Source: Massalongia carnosa (lineage: Eukaryota). Taken from it: DNA of 64,000 bases. Below the pieces are notes generated by a model. It did no database searches. It was not told where the DNA came from and was given only the letters and a program-made list of their open reading frames with translations. Within the stretch, counting starts at the first letter, position 1. Every line of letters starts with the position of its first letter. Location of the stretch: contig OZ287069.1 of NCBI GenBank assembly GCA_965645245.1, forward strand, positions 682,001 through 746,000. Reading direction: 5' to 3'. The position numbers were made by a program, and so were the translations under genes. This document shows, one piece after another, positions 32,375 to 64,000 of this stretch.

Positions 32375-33607
32375 TTTAAAGCAAAAAGCGAAAAAGACCC
32401 ACATCAGAGTAACGATTATGACTTAGGCTGGCACCCCGCGGGCGACACTGTGGTCCCACCCCCAGGCCTAACACTAGCCTGTGATCCTGTCCCATAAGCC
32501 CCACCTGGCGCAGGTGAGGCTGTTGCCGGTGGGGATCCTTCACCACTTAAGGCGGAAGCCACGACCGCATCGCTGCTTTCACCAATTTTTTTTGGTTTGG
32601 GGTCAAAGGTTTTTCCTGCTTGCTGTACTTAGCGGCCTCTACCTGCACGGCTTTAGCTTGGGCTAGTGTCGGTTTCGATGCCGTTGATGAAGATGCTGCT
32701 GTTGGCGCATTGCCTGTTGCCGTTGCTTTTGGCGTTCCTGCTGATTAAGTGCTTTCCGATGATGGTTGTTTTGAATCTTCTCCGCTTGATGCTACTGTAT
32801 CCGAAGATGCTCTTTCCGAGGTTGAACCATCCGCGGTTGAACCTTCCGATGTTGCTGTATCTGACGATGCCCCGTTCGGTTTATTTTCCTCCGCCGTTGT
32901 CCCACCTAATGATGTCCCTTCTAGGTGGGGGCCACCTGCTGATTGAGGGGATGAGGTCGCACCTCCCAAAGTCGCTTCTGTATAGCCCGCCGGAGTTAAA
33001 CATGTAGGTTCTCCTGCTAAGAGCTTGCAGTCTTTATCAAGGCCCCTGATACATCACTAGCCTTGTTGCTCATTCCTCGAATAATAAAACTACATACGGG
33101 TTTAATATTTCGAGCGTGGCGGTACTATATCCCTTCAATCGGCTTTCTAGTTTTTCTGCTATAGGCGCAAAAGTATCTCCAACTACCGCTGAACAAGCTC
33201 CAGATAGCTGCGGAAGGCACAGTTTCTCTCCGGAAATAAGATCGTCGCACGTGGGAGGTATGCTATTTGCTCCAACAAAGTCCCTGGTTGAGACCTTCAC
33301 TTTCTGTGAGATAGTCACGCAGGTGTCCTTGTCGACCACAGTGTAGATTACACCCCCATTACATGAGCTGCTAGCTCCTACCTCCTACTGTGGCATCGCC
33401 CGATCAGGTAGGCGATGCATTTAGGGTGGAATCTCCGGAACCAGTTTCTGATGATTCTGGGGTTCCGCCTGTTCTGTACGTGGCTATGCCAGTATCTTTG
33501 CTGCTATCACCAGTTACGCCAGCTGTGTCTTGAGGGAATGGGGCTGCATGAGTTTGTAAAACCAGGTGCAAGCCGAGACAGAGTACAGTGAGAAAACGAA
33601 CGGCCAT
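32375..33607 (-). pseudogene. Secreted LysM-domain effector pseudogene (two LysM-like repeats plus Ser/Thr/Ala tail)
   Basis: Signal peptide MAVRFLTVLCLGLHLVLQTHAAP; YTVVDKDTCVTISQK..VS...GAN...CDDLISGEKLCLP and VVGDTFAPIA...LEILNP-GLDKDCKLLAGEPTCL; stops at 33404 and 32745, frameshift near 33355. Confidence 0.75.
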
Positions 33608-34448
33608 GACGAAGAAAATTTGCGGGATAGACGAAGAGAAATTCGTTCAAATTGTCAAAGGCGGCTTATGCAGGCTTTTCAAGAAAATATATAAAAAAAA
33701 GCTTTCTTACGCGTGTTCCGTTGGCCGTTCCGCCTTAGTAATGCGCAACACCCAAGTCCGATGGTCGTCGTTTCAAAATTCGATTCTCGCAAGGCCCAGA
33801 AACTTCGCTTCCCCCCGTCGCGGAACCATTGAGAGATACTGCCAGGGTTCCTGCCTTTTAGGAGGCGGCTCGGCTCCCGCTTTTGTTTCCGGCTTGAGAA
33901 AAGATTGTTTTGTCCCAGCTATGAGATCGAGATTAGGACAGAAATAAAAAGTAAGTAAATGCCCCCAAGACTTTTTCTGCGTAAATTAAAAAATACAACG
34001 CGCAGCTTATGGGGGGTTTTATCGGTGCACAGGTAAGTTATTAAAAAGCGAACACCTGTACCACAGCAGCACCAGAGCAGCGGTTGCCAGCGCGGAATAT
34101 TACTTCCATGCCGCACGGGTCTTTTGCCAGCGGGAAGGGGTAGCTTGAAGAACAGATGAACTCCGCCGCAAAGTAAGAAAAGTTTCACCCTTAGCTATCC
34201 GTACTCCGTACTTCGTATGTGATCATCGCTTGATTTCGATTACGTACACTTCTCTCCTATTGAATCAGTTGAGCGGCTTGGTGCGATGAATCGCTTCTTG
34301 TTCGACCCCCAATGTAACGCATTTCATTCTGACGAACCTGGCTAAAAGTTAAAAAAATGCAAAAACCAAGCTTCTAATATATACTAGCCCAAGACCTTGG
34401 TTGTATTCATGGTGAAATTTGATACAAACTCCACGTCGCTGCAGCGCT

Positions 34449-37201
34449 TCAATTATACTTCATTGCAATCCTTTCGGCATGATTAATTCTCTCGATAGTC
34501 GCCTTCAGTTCTGCTCGCTGACGTATTAGCAACTCTTCTTCAACGGCGATTCTCCTCAGCTCTTCATCAGTGAGTTCGGCGACATAAATAGGAGAGAAGA
34601 TCAACATTGGCCCCTGTGCATCATTTAAATACTGCTCCACAACGATTTGAATTGCGAACTCGATGAAGTCGTTACGGGCGATCTCATAATAGGCTTTGAG
34701 AGTATCGTGTATCGCATCCTCGAGATTCTGGGAGTTACTAATATGTAGCTCGGCAACGAGCGATGCAGTGTCTCGCATATCTATGGTAAATTCTGTACCA
34801 GGGCTATCAGGCAGTACCTCCAACAGATTTGATGTTGAAGGCGTTTTGGATAACCTGTATCGCTCCACTGCTCCCTGAAAACGAAGTAATCTTGCCTCTC
34901 TAACTTTTTGCTCAAACGCGGGATTACTTGTATGCAAATGCCCTGAGAGCACTTGTTTAAGTCGTTGAGAAAGCTGTTCGAGCCCACGTGTTCTTCCTTT
35001 TTCGTTAGCAGCTTGTATCACAGATGTGATTTGAGCCCTTGTTTCCTTGTCGCCAACTATGGTTCCTAGCATTTTTCCATAGCCGTGAGAGTAGATACCG
35101 TAATTCTTTCAAAATACAGCTTGCTTAGATCTTTCCAACCACTGGCTTGCTTGTGGGAAAGAACGGGCAAGACATCTGGATTTAACGTGCCCTGAAGCTC
35201 GGTACCCCGGCTTGCTTTCACTTCAGCTGTTATCCAGTTGTATATATTATCCGAACCCCAAACGGGGAAGGATGGCGGAAGATCTCTGGCTAAAAGAAGT
35301 TTCGGCGAAAATAATGGCTGAGTCATTGCTGGAGCAGTTGCAGAGACTAACTGAAGCTTTTTCTGTTCCTCACGATACTTACTTAGTCTCAACTCTTCAT
35401 GTGAATAATTCCGATAACTAGGATGACAAGAAATGCTTTGAGATTGTATATTGCAACCAGTCTCTAATTCCTTCTCGGAGTACGGTTCCAAGGAAGTATC
35501 TTTACTCCAAGGAAAGGGGGCACCTACGACCTGACTTTCTTTGGTAAAATGTGACTCCGGATATTTGGTTCCGCTAAAGAGACCACCATGATTGCTTTTG
35601 CTGGGGGTGGCTGACGCAGCATTTGTGAAATTGAATGTCTGTTCTATAGTCCGACTTTTCTTTGGGTTGTTACAATCAATAGATGGTCTTTCTAGAAATG
35701 GAAGGTGGTGCCCGTGCATATTCATATCACGGACGAATGCATCATTAGTATCACGAACCAGCATTCTTATTTTCATGTCGTTGGCTCCGATGTAGTGGTA
35801 AAGGCCACGGAGAGAATTTGAAACCATGGAGTGAAGCTGCTGCGCTATCTTCGTCAGGTAAGCACGCTTCTGGTCCAAAGTCTCTCGAGGCATGCCAAGG
35901 GACTTCAGTTGCGCCTTAGCAAAGTCTCGCCGGGTTCGAATGGTGGCAAGTATTGTAGGAAAGATCTCCTGGATATGTTTGCACAAAAGACCTACAAGAT
36001 GTGTTTGGAGGGCTTCAGTCCCCCGACGACTTTTGGAGATTCGACTCCAAGGTTCGTTATTGAAGAATGCTTCTTCCCGTCTCTGGTGCTCTATTGAGTC
36101 GAGCTTTGCTTCAACTTCTGTTGGAGTACGATTGCGAACAACAAACCAACCGTGCTTAAGATGCTTCTCCTTGTTCTGTGCCAGCTCTATAACCTATAGA
36201 GTCTTTAATCATCAATATTCCCAAGTACGCCGCATCGCTTACCTGGTTCTGATGCTGCGCGACATCGCATTTAGTGATAACTCCTACAGTCCGTTTACCA
36301 TCTGGATCCTGTTTAGATGCCATATCGAACGCTGCTTGATTTGCTAGATCGTTTGTACCGCACGCTACGCAACTTCAGATAAACTGTTATTGTTCTGCTT
36401 TCTTCTTGTTATGTTAAGCCACTTACACAATGATACTCTGTTTTGGTGCCATGAACGACGAGACCATACTTAGTACACCATATTTTTCCGCGACTTTTAG
36501 TCCCTTGGTAAGCGATTGAAAGACACCTGGAACATCTAGAATGCTGAAATGGTATCTCGATGGCCCGGATATCTCTATTCTCAGAACATCGTCGGAAAAA
36601 TTAACGTTTGTGTTGATTGAGTGCGAAGCCATGCCATTAGGCTGCTGTGGGATGCCCGCTCCAATACACATGAGATTTGCAGCCTGCATTAGTTGTTATA
36701 GAAAGGCAAAGAGAGATCATGTTAAAGGAAGCGTTTATTTCCTCTATCGCAGCTTTGAACTGTGCTGCTGTAATATTAGGAGTACTACGGCTGAACTGAG
36801 CGTATCGCTCCCGGCGATCTTCAGGAGGACGTTCTGTGTGAAAACGACTGATTTCCGTAAGCTCGATGGATATCTTCGTGATTTCTGCTTCATTCGGTGT
36901 ACGACGAGAGACGATTCGCGTAGAAAATCGGATACAGAGCCGATCAGCCACTGGAAATGGGATATTTGTCAGGCTTTGCAGCAAGGATGATTTCCCAACC
37001 GAGTGGTCGCCGACAAGAACAAGCTAAGTAGGTGTGTCAGTCGAGACTGCACTTAAAATCATAAGCTGCAGAAACATTTCTCACATCTGGTAAATCAAGA
37101 TCGCGGCCAGCACCCAAGCTCTGCAGCTTATCAATAGCTTCGAAGAGTCACTGGCTCTCCTCGGTATGAAAGATGTCATCGTTGAGTAGCGGACGCTCCA
37201 T
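34449..37201 (-). pseudogene. Accessory dynamin-like (Mx/Vps1-superfamily) GTPase, apparently disrupted
   Basis: G1 LVGDHSVGKSSLL, LCIRF, G3 LDVPG, G4 ITKCD, HGWFVVRNR, SRGTELQG.LNP and GED AYYEIARNDFIE; TGA at codon 18 (37150-37148), AT instead of GT donor at about 36738, frameshift at about 35070. Confidence 0.85.
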
Positions 37202-59461: not shown

Positions 59462-62400
59462 TCAATGTGACCTCTGCTTCCGTAGCGCTCGTCAGTTGTG
59501 GACTCGACTTGCGCCTTAGTCGGTGCATCTGGCGCTCACCAGGCTTGCAGCTGCCGCTGCCATGGCCATATCCGATTTCCCGCTGGGTATTCTGGAAGTG
59601 ACTCTTGGGAGCGCCGATGCCACGACGCCATTCCCGTTAAGCGCTCGTTTGACTCCAGCGCTACTTTGTAAGCCGTTGACGGTTGAATGCCGCTTGGGTG
59701 GCGCAATTGACTTGTTCGGCGAATGGCTTGGCATATCGCGGTTTCTGACCGCCGTACCCTTCTTGAAGCTTGTCACTGGTGGTTCGGGCAAAGGACGCAT
59801 CCCAGCAGGGGTTTGCATGGAGTTGTAGCGTTTGACAGGCGAACTCACGGCTGTTGAGAGATGTGGACGAAGCGGGCGGGCTGCAGACTTGGTGCCAGTG
59901 ATAAATTCGTGGCGGGCGGCTTCATCAGGTTTGAGGCGACGGTCAGGGTCCCATCGGAGGCACCGAGTAATAAAGTCAAGGAAGGCTTCATCTTCACATT
60001 TCAACACCTGTTGAAGAGATTTGGAGCTAGGCCGCCGTCTTTTACCCTTTGACGAGACAGTCAGGCGGGGTTTTCCCAGCGAGTCGAAAAAGAGTTTTTT
60101 GCGAGTACTTTTTTCAATAAGATGTTTTTCTGGCGGTCCAAAGACTTCCATTATGCACGCCAATTGCTCCTGTTCGTTTTCTCCTGGGAAGATGGGATAC
60201 CCGGTCAAGAGCTCGGCTAGAATACAGCCCAAGCTCCACATATCAATTGGCATACCGTAAGTCATACCGAGAATGACCTCTGGAGAACGGTAGAACCGCG
60301 ATTGAATGTAAGTGTAAACCTTCTCGTTTTCAAGGCAGCTCGATCCAAAATCAATGACCTTAATTTCGGAATGAGCAGGATGGGCAAGTAAGATGTTCTC
60401 AGGCTTTAAGTCACAGTGGATAACCTTATGGCTCCTTAAGAGCACAAGGCTACTTAGCAGCTGCTTGGCGAATCGTCGTATTAGCTTCAGCGAGAACCCA
60501 CGGAAATCATGGCTTTTAATAAATTCGTATAGGTTCATGCCAAGCAGCTCGGTAGATATGCATAGGTGTCCTCGGAAATAGAAACTTTGGGTGAAATTGA
60601 CCATGCTGTGTTTATTATGAGGATCCTGAAAGAATATAGTCAGTACATTATTCATAGATTATAAGATTAGACTAGAAATACCCATTCTCGAAGTTTTTTG
60701 AGAATGTCAACCTCCACAAGCGCTTGTTGGTGGAACCTCTTCGTGTTTCGGATGATTTTGATAGCCACCAAGCCGCCTGTCTTGTGATCCACACATCGTA
60801 CAACCTGACCAAAGCTTCCTTTCCCAAGAATGTCAACTATTTCATAACGGTAAAATAAGTGATCGCCATTCACAATGTTATAATCTCCACGTTCGTCATC
60901 ATAGCCAAAATTAGCTGTGTCTGTAGTAAGATCACCAACATGCTTCTTTGCATCATGTTTTCCGCAAAAATATATGTCCTTGTAATCTACAATTTCACCG
61001 CGCTCGAAAATGTTGAGATGCGCCATACGTATGGCGTGATTGGAAGAAACTCGTTCTTTTGCGGTTGCCCTTCTACGCAAGGCATCCATCTCTTTAGCTG
61101 CACTTTCGGTGTCTTTCCGTTTCAGCGCGAGTCTCTTCATCTCCTCCTCAGCTAAAAGGTCATCACGGTCTAATTGCAAATCCATGGTCTTAGCTTCGCG
61201 CAGAAAGTCTTTTAGACTCAACGAGTTGGACAGCGAGCCACCTTCGAAGACGGACCTGGCCGTCCTGTTTTTTTTGAAGCCCGATGTGGGCTCAGGATAT
61301 GCTGATTCCTTTTTTGGGCTGCCGTCTGCACCCCAGGTGTTACTTCGAGTTCTTTCATGATGAACGCTAATGTTAGGGTTTGAAGTCTTTCTTGGGGTAT
61401 TGGGTAATTTAGTTTTTTGTGTTGGGCTGGGGCTTGGTATGAGGGGACCGTTCCAGGTAGCTGATGCGGGCAATCTAGGCGGAGGCATATGGTCGTGCTT
61501 TGGGGGTTTGGGAGGCAAATCCGCATCACATTCCGCAATTAATTGGGTCTTGGAAGCGCTCCGCTTGCGCGTTAGGCTCAACTTACGCCGCAGTGAACTT
61601 CCTATCGAAGGCGTACTGCGTTCAATAGGGCTTTGGTTCTCCAAGCTCGAAGCATCATCATTTGATACTTTAACTTGCCTTTGCGCTCGAGGACCCGTCA
61701 GCCTCGACGGCTTAACGTCTAGACCTGCATCAACAATATTTGGCTCCTCGCCGCTTTTCCGAAGGTAGCCAAATTCTGCGCTAATTTTAGGTAGCGAAGA
61801 CGAGACAAAAGGAGACATGGCTTTGCGGCTGGTATTATTAACCGGTTGATCCTGTGAGGATGGCACAATAGAGCTTGAACTGCTTGGAGTACGGTGAGAA
61901 TATGCTTCGGCTCGAATCAAGTGGGTTGAGCTGCTGGTTGGTCTCAGCGCCGTCCTAGGTGTCGGGTCTTCCTCCCGAGCACTTCTCAAAAAGAAGCTTG
62001 CCTTGGACGCAGTCATAGGGGTGCTCGGGGTTCGTGTTGCGCCGAGCTTTGGAGGCGGAGTGAGATTCCCCAAGTTCATCAAACTTGGGCCGTCATATAA
62101 CGCAGCAATTTTTGCAGCTGTCGGGGTGCTGAGAGGGAGAAGATTCAATGGCGGCAACCGCAAAGGCTGTAAGGTTCTTCGACTATTATTTATCCCTCCA
62201 CTTGTTTTTCTGTCAACTCCAGAAGTAGCTCCAAGCGTATCGCCTCTCCTTTGCCGGGTTTCTCGATTGGATTTTGCAACGTTGATCTCGACGGAGTGAG
62301 TGGATACCCCATCAGCTGTAGAACTGCTTGCCTGACTAGTATTATCAAATGGCAAGCTCGATTTTCGGACTGAGAAGAAAGACTGATCAAACTCTCCCTT

Positions 62401-64000
62401 TGGCGATTCATACGCTTTGGGGATTGCTGGAACCGGAGGCACTTCTTCTTCTCCGCCACCAGAACCATTTTCGCCCCAAATTTTCGGGGTAGGCAATCTC
62501 GAGGTTGAGATGTTTTGTGAAATGCGTAAGGGCCCCATTGATGCTAGGAAAGAACTATAACTCGTGCTCGACGAATTTGAGATACCCGAGCTGTAGGACT
62601 TTCGATTGGCTTCTGGCGTGGTTCGAGAGGATGATGGGGTGATACTTTTCCGACGAAACGAGGATGGTGAGCGAGCTGAAGACTGTGCTACTAAGCAAGA
62701 TTGTTCTGGCTGTGGCGTAGATGGTGTAAAGGGTATTGGTGGTGGGTTTGGCATAACTGACATTCTCTTCATTCTACGGGCATCAGTAGGACTAATCGTT
62801 CGAGCGCCTAAACCTGTAGCATGAGCAGTCCCGGGCATGATAGATAACCTTTTTGCAGATGACGGAGTATTTGTGCGACGGCCCGTCGATCTTCCAGCTG
62901 ATCGAGTGGCGCTGACTGTCGGTGAGTTTGTATGATCAGAATTGCTAGAAGGCGTTGATAGAAAATCTTGCACTAGCCTTGGAGGTGGCTGGAAGGACTT
63001 GGTTCTCTTATCCCGAAGAGCCTCTGGTCTTCGAACCACTTCTATCGGGGTCCCATTTTGGATGCCAGAAGGCTCTCCAATGGACATATTTTCTGGTGGA
63101 TAGATCAGGGCGCAAGCACCTGTGTTACTCTCTTGCGCAAGGCTTGGACGTTGTTTTTGAGGCCCTTGATAGGAAAATTCTGATGTTAATATCCCTGGAC
63201 CAATGGACTTCCGAGGAGGCCTACCGATAGCTTCGTTTGTGACATTTGCTGCCGGAAAATGACTTTTCCGCCTTGCCTTTGTAGATATCGGTGGTCCCAT
63301 GTTGATTAAGGTCCCTGCTGGCTTAGACAATTGACTGGTATCACTATCTTGGCGTCGTACCAGCGAATTAGCACGGCTGATACGGCATCCAGGATCTAAC
63401 GGCTCTGTTCTCTTCACCGAAATGCTTATATTTGACCTATCATCGGACACCCTTTTTCGCGGCATGATAACCCCCCCACCCCCTAGCGCAGGAAACGAGC
63501 TTAGATCAGTCTCGTCAGAATCCAGGCTGTTGTGGAAATCATCAAATCGCAACGCTGGAGCGAAATCAAAGGAATCTGTATTTTTCGTTCCCTCGTGGTT
63601 ACCGGTGAGCGCCAAAGATGCAAAGCTAAACCTTGAAGTATCATTGATTGATGTTTGCCTCGGACGCGAGTCCTTAGGGACATTGGGTGCAAACGACCGT
63701 TGGGACGTCTGGGAACTCGAGAGCCTATCGTCGAATGGGCTGCGTTAGATAAAAGCCTTCTACAAGTTCGGTTCACCTTGGTTAAGAATGCTGTGACGTA
63801 CCGCTTCGAAGGAGAATTTTGTGATGAGCCGAGCCCTGGCGGTACCTTTTGATCTCTTGTTGACTGCCTCCTTCGATTACGAGAATTCGACCGTATGTCA
63901 ACCGCAGATTTTGTCAAAGGAGCGATATCTGGCCGGGGTAGAGATATTGCCCCATCGAATGTACTTTTCTGAAACCTCTTGGGCGGCCGAGCTTCACCTA
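59462..64000 (-). CDS. pom1: Class 2 DYRK dual-specificity kinase, Pom1-like; 5' end outside window
   Basis: DH box NFGYDDERGDY, LGKGSFGQV, IHCDLKPEN, DFGSSC, YTYIQSRFYRSPE; introns at about 63800-63726 and 60681-60627, plus a probable terminal intron ending RSH* at 59462. Confidence 0.9.

Follow-up and report, generated by a model that had tools for sequence, protein, structure and literature searches.

A Nup98-type GLEBS-like module in the stalk of Mx-like dynamin GTPases of lichen-forming fungi, with a decayed copy in Massalongia carnosa

Background

Mx proteins are the classic antiviral GTPases, and the use that human MxB (MX2) makes of nuclear pore components is a current question. MX2 lacks FG (phenylalanine-glycine) repeats and a GLEBS (the Rae1/Gle2-binding segment of Nup98) of its own. 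In the account given in one preprint (10.1101/2023.06.22.545931), it recruits nucleoporins through its disordered N-terminus and forms condensates of FG nucleoporins, which serve as pore decoys. Mx-like dynamins of Ascomycota and other fungi (MxF), with dynamic turnover, are reported in the main text of Langley et al. (PNAS 2025, PMC11789081). Fungal Mx-like proteins have as yet no known function. Here we analyze a stretch of 64,000 nucleotides (nt) from Massalongia carnosa (assembly GCA_965645245.1, contig OZ287069.1, positions 682,001 to 746,000 of the forward strand), called the window below. It harbors a decayed Mx-like dynamin gene whose stalk-coding part contains a GLEBS-like insert, and its relatives in other fungi carry in the same place a module resembling a part of a nucleoporin.

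In Nup98 and Nup116 the order of elements is FG/GLFG repeats, GLEBS, FG repeats, and the Pfam layout of P0210, a fungal nucleoporin used here for comparison, agrees with it. The FG region of yeast Nup116, a GLEBS-bearing GLFG nucleoporin, binds Gag3 of the Ty3 element, as stated in PMC5918913. Overexpression of GLEBS is described in PMC3783196 as leading to mislocalization of Rae1 and to blocked export of poly(A) RNA. Together with the MX2 decoys, these two reports make a pore or decoy mechanism plausible for a GTPase equipped with such elements.

The family described here shares with human MxB and MxA the G domain, the bundle-signalling element and the helical stalk. Unlike in MX2, however, its nucleoporin-like module sits within a stalk loop, and its hosts are fungi, which have no interferon system. 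Like the segment in Nup98, Nup116 and Nup145N, the family GLEBS is embedded between FG/GLFG repeats; unlike those nucleoporins, the host protein is a GTPase. In plant nucleotide-binding leucine-rich repeat (NLR) receptors, an integrated decoy is a segment of a targeted host protein that has become joined to a protein of defence. Only this idea is shared with our family: the protein class differs and there is no sequence relation. The GLEBS-bearing family most likely belongs to the MxF group. The words nucleoporin, Nup98, disordered and lichen are absent from the main text of PMC11789081, so the insert is not described there, and open-access papers and preprints gave us no account of any dynamin or Mx protein with a GLEBS or FG module.

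Results and discussion

The insert in the window copy

The gene lies on the minus strand, and tblastn with four homologues gives a single collinear five-exon copy. Its long exon, which includes a 375-codon open frame (minus strand, 35066-36193), matches Pfam Dynamin_M with 83 bits. The P-loop exon LVLVGDHSVGKSS scores 23.4 bits for Dynamin_N, under the cut-off for that exon alone, and GED is found with 13.9 bits. The gene and the parts of its insert, in window positions, are:

34449..37201, minus strand: decayed Mx-like dynamin GTPase gene
37201-37085, 37023-36739, 36683-36427, 36372-36243 and 36193-34452, minus strand: exons 1-5 of this gene
34449-34451, minus strand: its stop codon
35246-35695, minus strand: stalk-loop insert of 150 amino acids (aa), open in frame, delimited in a MAFFT alignment of the window copy and 62 homologues
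35627-35635, minus strand: FNF tripeptide in the translation, without a conserved counterpart in the family alignment
35570-35587, minus strand: degenerate GLFG-type repeat GGLFSG, aligned to GGLFGS of the relative P0018
35360..35491, minus strand: GLEBS-like motif, insert residues 66-109, delimited by BLASTP to P0210 and hhalign to the family profile A1
35375-35491, minus strand: the stretch LEPYSEKELETGCNIQSQSISCHPSYRNYSHEELRLSKY (LEPYSEKE...SHEELRLSKY) in the translation of the insert

The insert is bordered by a helix ending in ..MHGHHLPF and by the short helix IYNWITAEV ahead of the RGTELQG loop. A preliminary description, made from the letters of the window, had placed it between MHGHHLPF and IYNWI..EVKASRGTEL and had named FNF, GGLFSG and a GLEBS-like stretch as its contents; all of them are located in the translation.

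The sole Pfam family that matches the insert is Nup98_GLEBS (E=0.081, 13.4 bits, under the 27-bit cut-off), and the sole PDB sequence match is human Nup98, over its GLEBS (E=8). By themselves, these two matches are only suggestive. In a single BLASTP comparison with P0210, the insert aligns at E=5e-9, with 45 residues at 42% identity, and the aligned part of P0210, residues 189-233, falls on its Pfam-annotated GLEBS. Profile A1 was built from inserts or motifs of 38 relatives and contains neither nucleoporins nor the window copy; in hhalign, the insert matches it with a probability of 97.3% and E=2e-11. EELRL is kept in the window motif, where EE corresponds to E201/E202 of Nup98. Judged by sequence comparison, the likeness of the insert to GLEBS exceeds chance, and the earlier proposal, a dynamin-like GTPase whose stalk contains a GLEBS module of Nup98 type, holds.

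A family of homologues with FG repeats and GLEBS

A search with the long exon found 62 longer homologues with 29-56% identity. Those that are named all come from lichen-forming ascomycetes, for example Variospora, Stereocaulon, Lepraria, Cladonia and Peltula. Every one of the 62 has an insert at the same place of the stalk, 113-531 aa long, and in 52 of them it contains the motif [EDG]E[LIVQ]RL, with F..(x)..FQSI....PY..FSFEELRL.DY.Q as the family consensus. The stalk loop of 52 homologues is arranged as FG/GLFG, then GLEBS, then FG repeats. At least three FG dipeptides are present in 54 of the 62 (median 5, mostly C-terminal of the motif), the charge of the inserts is low (median 15%) and their share of S/T/G/N/Q/P/A is high.

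Pfam searches covered 61 homologues. Nup98_GLEBS is found at E<=0.01 in nine of them (best 24.0 bits) and Nucleoporin_FG (PF13634) in eleven, two of which are over the curated cut-off (41.1 bits); the C-terminal autopeptidase domain Nucleoporin2 (PF04096), typical of Nup98-type nucleoporins, is found at E<=0.01 in none. In full-length homologues the top scores are 90 bits for Dynamin_N, 114 for Dynamin_M and 30.9 for GED. Intact homologues that combine dynamin and GLEBS, a search for which was proposed in the preliminary description, exist in many genomes, and they also have real FG repeats. In the window copy, the FG-like part is weak, with only GGLFSG and no FG dipeptide.

Pyrenodesmia sp. 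2 possesses two paralogues, P0023 and P0045. The 1314-aa protein P0041 of Haloplaca sp. 1 appears as a gene model fused to short-chain dehydrogenase / KR domains and is probably a merged gene model.

Relation of the module to Nup98

When A1 was compared with the PDB (177,635 sequences), the top eight of ten matches were Nup98 GLEBS, with E from 1.2e-5 (3mmy_B) to 6.4e-3. Rae1 complexes (3mmy, 4owr, 7vpg, 7byf) are among the top matches, and the first match other than Nup98 comes at E=0.44, which is noise. hhalign of P0210 against A1 gives a probability of 97.5% and E=5e-12 over 51 columns, again on the Pfam GLEBS of this nucleoporin. Among 5.8 billion proteins, the insert of P0061 has five matches at E<=10: three within the family itself and two in Nup98-type nucleoporins, P0210 (E=0.071) and P0211 (E=1.1). 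Both of these carry GLEBS, FG and autopeptidase domains (PF04096, 150 bits), and their Nup98_GLEBS (PF21240) scores are 26.2 and 30.0 bits, respectively. Such weak values for the nearest matches outside the family set its motif apart from that of Nup98-type nucleoporins, as does the residue after RL, which is S, N, R, K or T in the family, E in human Nup98 and Q in P0210. A1 itself has 25 matches at E<=10 in the 5.8 billion proteins, 23 with Dynamin_M and two without any Pfam domain. A search of the ESM Atlas with the insert of P0011 returned best scores of 0.80, to be taken as leads only, and no nucleoporin signal.

In the alignment of A1 with PDB chains, the EE of the family EELRL falls on Nup98 E201/E202, which, according to PMC3783196, are conserved and form salt bridges with arginines of Rae1/Gle2. 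Within A1, E36 never varies and at least 90% have E35, so that both Rae1-contacting glutamates are kept. On the strength of these profile alignments, the stalk module of the family is homologous to the N-terminal region of Nup98/Nup116-type nucleoporins. In the comparison with a GLEBS profile that had been proposed earlier as a check, the Pfam score of the window copy stays under 27 bits. Similarity at the level of profiles is significant (1.2e-5 for A1 against PDB, 5e-12 for P0210).

The GLEBS of Bub1 and BubR1 bind Bub3. The family motif might do likewise, as in Bub1/Mad3, or bind nothing at all, being a short linear motif kept by descent; the loop is disordered in the structural model of P0018, which would suit such an explanation. 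We nevertheless regard it as very unlikely. The profile matches Nup98, with no Bub1/Mad3 chain at E<=1 in the PDB and no Bub1/Mad3 Pfam family at E<=0.01 in the 61 homologues. Further, GLFG repeats flank the motif as they do in Nup98, and SFEELRLS is kept through six synonymous codon differences between the genes of the L003 group and L027, which shows that selection acts on the protein.

Position of the loop in an Mx-like stalk

Ranked by sequence, the PDB matches of P0018 are Mx2 (5uot, E=1.2e-30), Mx1 and dynamin-1, followed by Vps1 and Drp1. Foldseek with its AlphaFold2 model places MxB first (5uot, E=5.9e-19; then 4whj) and MxA next (5gtm). By both rankings, the family is an Mx-like branch of the dynamin superfamily and not Vps1- or Dnm1-like. 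The comparison with MxB drawn in the preliminary description was apt, since MxB and MxA are the best PDB matches both by sequence and by fold.

The model of P0018 has a mean pLDDT (predicted local distance difference test) of 70.8. Its insert, residues 443-638, is predicted to be mostly disordered, with the helix 414-432 on one side and, on the other, the short helix 641-652 ahead of the RGTELQG loop. Exceptions are residues 512-521 and 538-559 (pLDDT 46-67), in which EELRLSDYLQ is helical. The loop with the insert interrupts the first stalk helix about 12 residues ahead of the RG.EL.G loop. The latter aligns to YRGKELLGF of MxB, in a stretch that is not significant alone. Going by the structures of MxA and MxB, the site of the insert would be loop L1, and the RG.EL.G loop would be L2, which lies at the stalk tip that faces the target.

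Spread of the module

A profile of the full-length family gave 10,595 matches in 1.84 billion representative proteins. Among the best 150 of them, a local A1 search (E<1e-3) finds GLEBS in 41, of which 38 are in the first 65. Named bearers further include Sarea resinae (Sareomycetes), Sarcosagium campestre and Peltula (Lichinomycetes). The nearest members without GLEBS belong to Leotiomycetes and Pezizomycetes and have loops of 57-77 aa that are charged, proline-rich and free of FG. Because the C-terminal parts of distant relatives are unaligned, their insert lengths in hmmalign are unreliable and we use the qualitative result only.

A tree was built by FastTree from 143 rows, with insert columns dropped and rows shorter than 480 aa left out. 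All 43 GLEBS rows fall into one group of 48 rows (support 80), and there is a core clade of 43 rows (support 100), in which the window copy is placed. The state of GLEBS changes at minimum 5 times on this tree, versus 37 in shuffles. A single gain followed by losses fits the tree, the root being unplaced.

The loop of P0091, from Trichoglossum hirsutum, has the sequence WSFEEMRLVDY, resembling one half of a GLEBS, yet the protein falls outside the GLEBS group. No Pfam GLEBS match is found in this loop at E<=0.1. The motif may be of older origin or a chance match.

Splice-like signals around GLEBS

In five homologues, precisely the 51-54 aa that start with V and end with the Q of DY.Q are absent, each time in comparison with a relative that keeps them; over the other parts of the loop, identity varies from about half to nearly complete. 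This piece was evidently taken out by gene predictors as an in-frame intron. In the window, the corresponding features are:

35363..35527, minus strand: putative in-frame optional intron (exitron) covering GLEBS, placed by the window sequence and splice-like signals of the family
35522-35527, minus strand: intact donor-like GTAGGT, in the context GTC/GTAGGT ... CTAAGT
35369-35371, minus strand: GAG at the acceptor position of the family; the next CAG is six bases on (35363-35365)

The branch-like CTAAG of the window lies at ..RLS... In the family, signals of this kind can be read already from the protein alignment. In 50 of 53 aligned motifs, the V of the donor columns is followed by one of the four amino acids with NGT codons (R, G, S or C), so that GTNNGT would result at the level of DNA. 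Directly after RL, all 53 motifs have S, N, R, K or T, for each of which codons with initial A exist, and the CTNA that these give is similar to a branch site. Of the same 53, 48 have the terminal Q (CAG) and 46 an open stretch from V to Q of 47-60 codons. For four distinct genes (the window copy, the L003 group, L027 and L001), DNA is at hand, and all four have GTAGGT or GTACGT at the donor site. The L003 group reads CAA/GTAGGT ... CTAAGC ... CTTCAG/, L027 reads AAA/GTACGT ... CTGAGC ... GTGCAG/ and L001 reads TCT/GTAGGT ... CTAAGT ... CTTCAG/. The cassette agrees with what is expected of an exitron, which should have splice signals at either end and span a multiple of three nt. This framing sets it apart from the GLEBS of Nup98-type nucleoporins.

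Two related lineages have only a non-coding intron at the site of GLEBS. In L001 (5609-5747) and L018, which has the same segment, the GLEBS piece is 139 nt long and frameshifted, and it still reads ..LQSISSSERYKNQSHEELRLSDYLQ in another frame. Its retention leads to a stop, and splicing from GTAGGT to CAG, which yields ..GGFGNLS/AQSKTS.. in frame, is the only way to keep the frame; the remainder of this gene has stops at the usual intron sites only. In L013 (5662-5717) and four other contigs (L012, L014, L015, L026), there is an ordinary 56-nt intron, AAA/GTACGT..ACTAAT..AAG, at the start of the cassette. These genes lack GLEBS, and their loop keeps one GGLFA.

In the simplest reading, the sequences suggest that the GLEBS piece is an in-frame intron that is sometimes retained, which would give isoforms with and without GLEBS. 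One might go further and take the piece for an intron pure and simple that never enters the protein, with its GLEBS likeness as a fading relic. The conserved splice-like signals, the removal of the piece in five gene models and the two lineages with a non-coding intron would all agree with that. However, a never-translated intron would not keep the V to Q stretch open over 47-60 codons in 46 of 53 sequences, nor residues that are invariant across fungal classes, nor synonymous changes at conserved residues, nor a profile that aligns to a nucleoporin at E=5e-12. We therefore consider this explanation highly improbable. The preliminary description held that an intronic segment would speak against the module. 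The answer is mixed: GLEBS is clearly selected as protein, but splice-like signals also frame it, and in two lineages only a non-coding intron is present at the site.

Decay of the window copy

The window gene is a pseudogene. It lacks an intact frame and intact splice sites, due to three disabling lesions:

37148..37150, minus strand: in-frame TGA at codon 18, where the aligned residue of P0018 is R of SQRLFEAID
36737..36738, minus strand: AT instead of GT at the donor of intron 2, a 55-nt intron that starts with ATAAAC
35058..35077, minus strand: one-base frameshift in the stalk after ..STLTAMEKC, a deficit of 1 nt relative to homologues

The flanks of intron 2 are collinear with P0018 (exon 2 end ..AAIEE and exon 3 start AANLMC versus ..DAVD/RAKELMG). 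At the site of the frameshift, 11 nt of the window stand against 4 aa in P0018 and 26 nt against 9 aa in P0022.

Contigs from three sources were compared with the window: X3, a second sample from the study that yielded the window; X4, a metagenome of a lichen from a different study; and X5, from a third one. X1, which may be the window's own source, was not counted as independent. The X3 contigs show no difference from the window. The X4 contig spans the whole stretch with 19 substitutions, none of them at lesion sites, and no indel. The X5 contigs cover the donor and frameshift sites, which are unchanged, and the TGA is outside their coverage. The AT letters of the donor are thus identical in X3, X4 and X5, none of which has an indel relative to the window at the frameshift site, and the TGA codon occurs also in X3 and X4. 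Because donor and frameshift recur in all three studies and TGA in both that cover it, assembly errors do not explain the lesions. Between the window and X4, 15 differences are coding, namely 12 nonsynonymous and three synonymous ones, a ratio as given by neutral decay.

Repeat-induced point mutation is not favoured as the cause of the lesions, as two transitions lie outside CpA context and GC content is even along the gene. We also rejected a short intron as the reason why the frame changes near 35100: none of the GT..AG pairs would bring the frame back, and the homologues run collinear with the window, which is 1 nt short.

The state of this copy bears on the question whether the GTPase could be a housekeeping one, in which the module anchors a membrane-remodelling dynamin at pores or the nuclear envelope without any role in defence. 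The FG and GLEBS evidence would serve this explanation equally well, and the neighbours of the pseudogene in the window are ordinary housekeeping genes. An essential conserved role is, however, at odds with the Mx-like (not Vps1- or Dnm1-like) nature of the family, with insert lengths that vary between 113 and 531 aa, with the loss of GLEBS in nested lineages and with a window copy that is dead in every sampled strain. We thus find a housekeeping role rather unlikely.

A possible model of module function

The homology of the module, its place in the stalk, its spread within one clade and the pseudogene state of the window copy are the established ground for a model in which we infer binding of Gle2, pore targeting or decoy action, a role in defence and alternative splicing. 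In intact relatives, the GTPase would oligomerize through its stalk, as in Mx proteins, and thereby many copies of the module would be displayed at the target-facing end. GLEBS, a hairpin, would recruit Gle2/Rae1 by its two conserved glutamates. Cohesive FG repeats might partition into the FG phase of the nuclear pore or mimic it, and the protein would thus act at the pore or as its decoy. The most plausible targets would be elements that dock on GLFG nucleoporins, for example particles of long terminal repeat (LTR) retrotransposons or viruses. The in-frame, optionally spliced cassette would allow isoforms with or without GLEBS. That the window holds a dead copy from an Mx-like family whose FG-GLEBS-FG stalk module acts at the pore or as a pore decoy is the reading that we favour, with moderate confidence. 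More tentatively, and with considerable doubt, we suggest that lichen fungi and their allies possess an Mx-type restriction GTPase with a built-in, splice-switchable pore decoy, which would trap particles of retrotransposons or viruses that need GLFG nucleoporins or would shut off Gle2-dependent export.

Several points weigh against the favoured reading. With 22% charged residues and zero FG dipeptides, the window insert does not qualify as an FG-repeat domain. At two positions that are conserved in the family, its GLEBS has another residue (K in place of D and E in place of the terminal Q), and its 13.4 bits are under the Pfam cut-off of 27. No homologue reaches this cut-off either (best 24.0), although P0210, a true nucleoporin, also falls short of it with 26.2 bits. 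The motif is missing in 10 of 62 homologues, of which at least five look like gene models splicing it out. None of the matches that A1 has at E<=10 in the 5.8 billion proteins is a nucleoporin, and the tree comes from FastTree only, with a support of just 80 for the group into which all GLEBS rows fall. The assignment of L1 and L2 and of their target-facing position is tentative, and the MxB alignment at that place is not significant on its own. Finally, GLEBS-type motifs can bind Bub3 rather than Rae1.

The same module may be viewed as an integrated decoy or guard without any localizing role. The GLEBS-Gle2 unit would then be bait for attackers of the Rae1-Nup98 complex of mRNA export, and their engagement would trigger assembly of the GTPase. 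Viral proteins do bind the Rae1-Nup98 GLEBS complex (4owr, 7vpg and 7byf are among the PDB matches of A1), and several that target Rae1 are mentioned in PMC3783196. Gene turnover also speaks for bait; we see it in the window pseudogene and in the two paralogues of Pyrenodesmia sp. 2, and the main text of Langley et al. (PMC11789081) describes dynamic turnover for fungal MxF genes. However, bait would not need long FG tails, in inserts of up to 531 aa. We know of no fungal virus or effector that targets Gle2-Nup98, although no search for one was made. On balance, an integrated decoy of this kind seems unlikely to us.

Other features of the window

Just downstream of the pseudogene there is a small frame with a LysM domain (29.1 bits), and a possible signal-peptide-like exon is found next to it; together they look like a secreted LysM protein. 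Farther along, Ser/Pro/Thr-rich open frames overlap on both strands. One of them was searched against Pfam and gave no match. Two frames near the other end of the window are parts of one large kinase gene split by an intron, and the long N-terminal region of this gene has no family match.

33073-33384, minus strand: small frame with LysM domain
about 33404-33646: possible signal-peptide-like exon
32400-33050, both strands: overlapping Ser/Pro/Thr-rich open frames; AT skew down to -0.39
60670-63744, minus strand: open frame of 1025 aa, with the start of a kinase domain only at its end
59519-60658, minus strand: continuation of the kinase domain

Significance

As the copy in the window is a pseudogene, the weight of the result at this locus is modest, and its interest lies at the level of the family. 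If our assumptions are true, the module would be the first GLEBS that we could find outside nucleoporins and checkpoint kinases, and the apparent coding intron around it would represent an interaction motif under splice control. The family would make the function of fungal Mx proteins testable, by way of Gle2 binding, localization to pores or condensates and restriction of retroelements. It would also be an independent natural experiment on Mx proteins as pore decoys, in which fungi possess a hard-wired counterpart of the recruitment of nucleoporins by human MX2.

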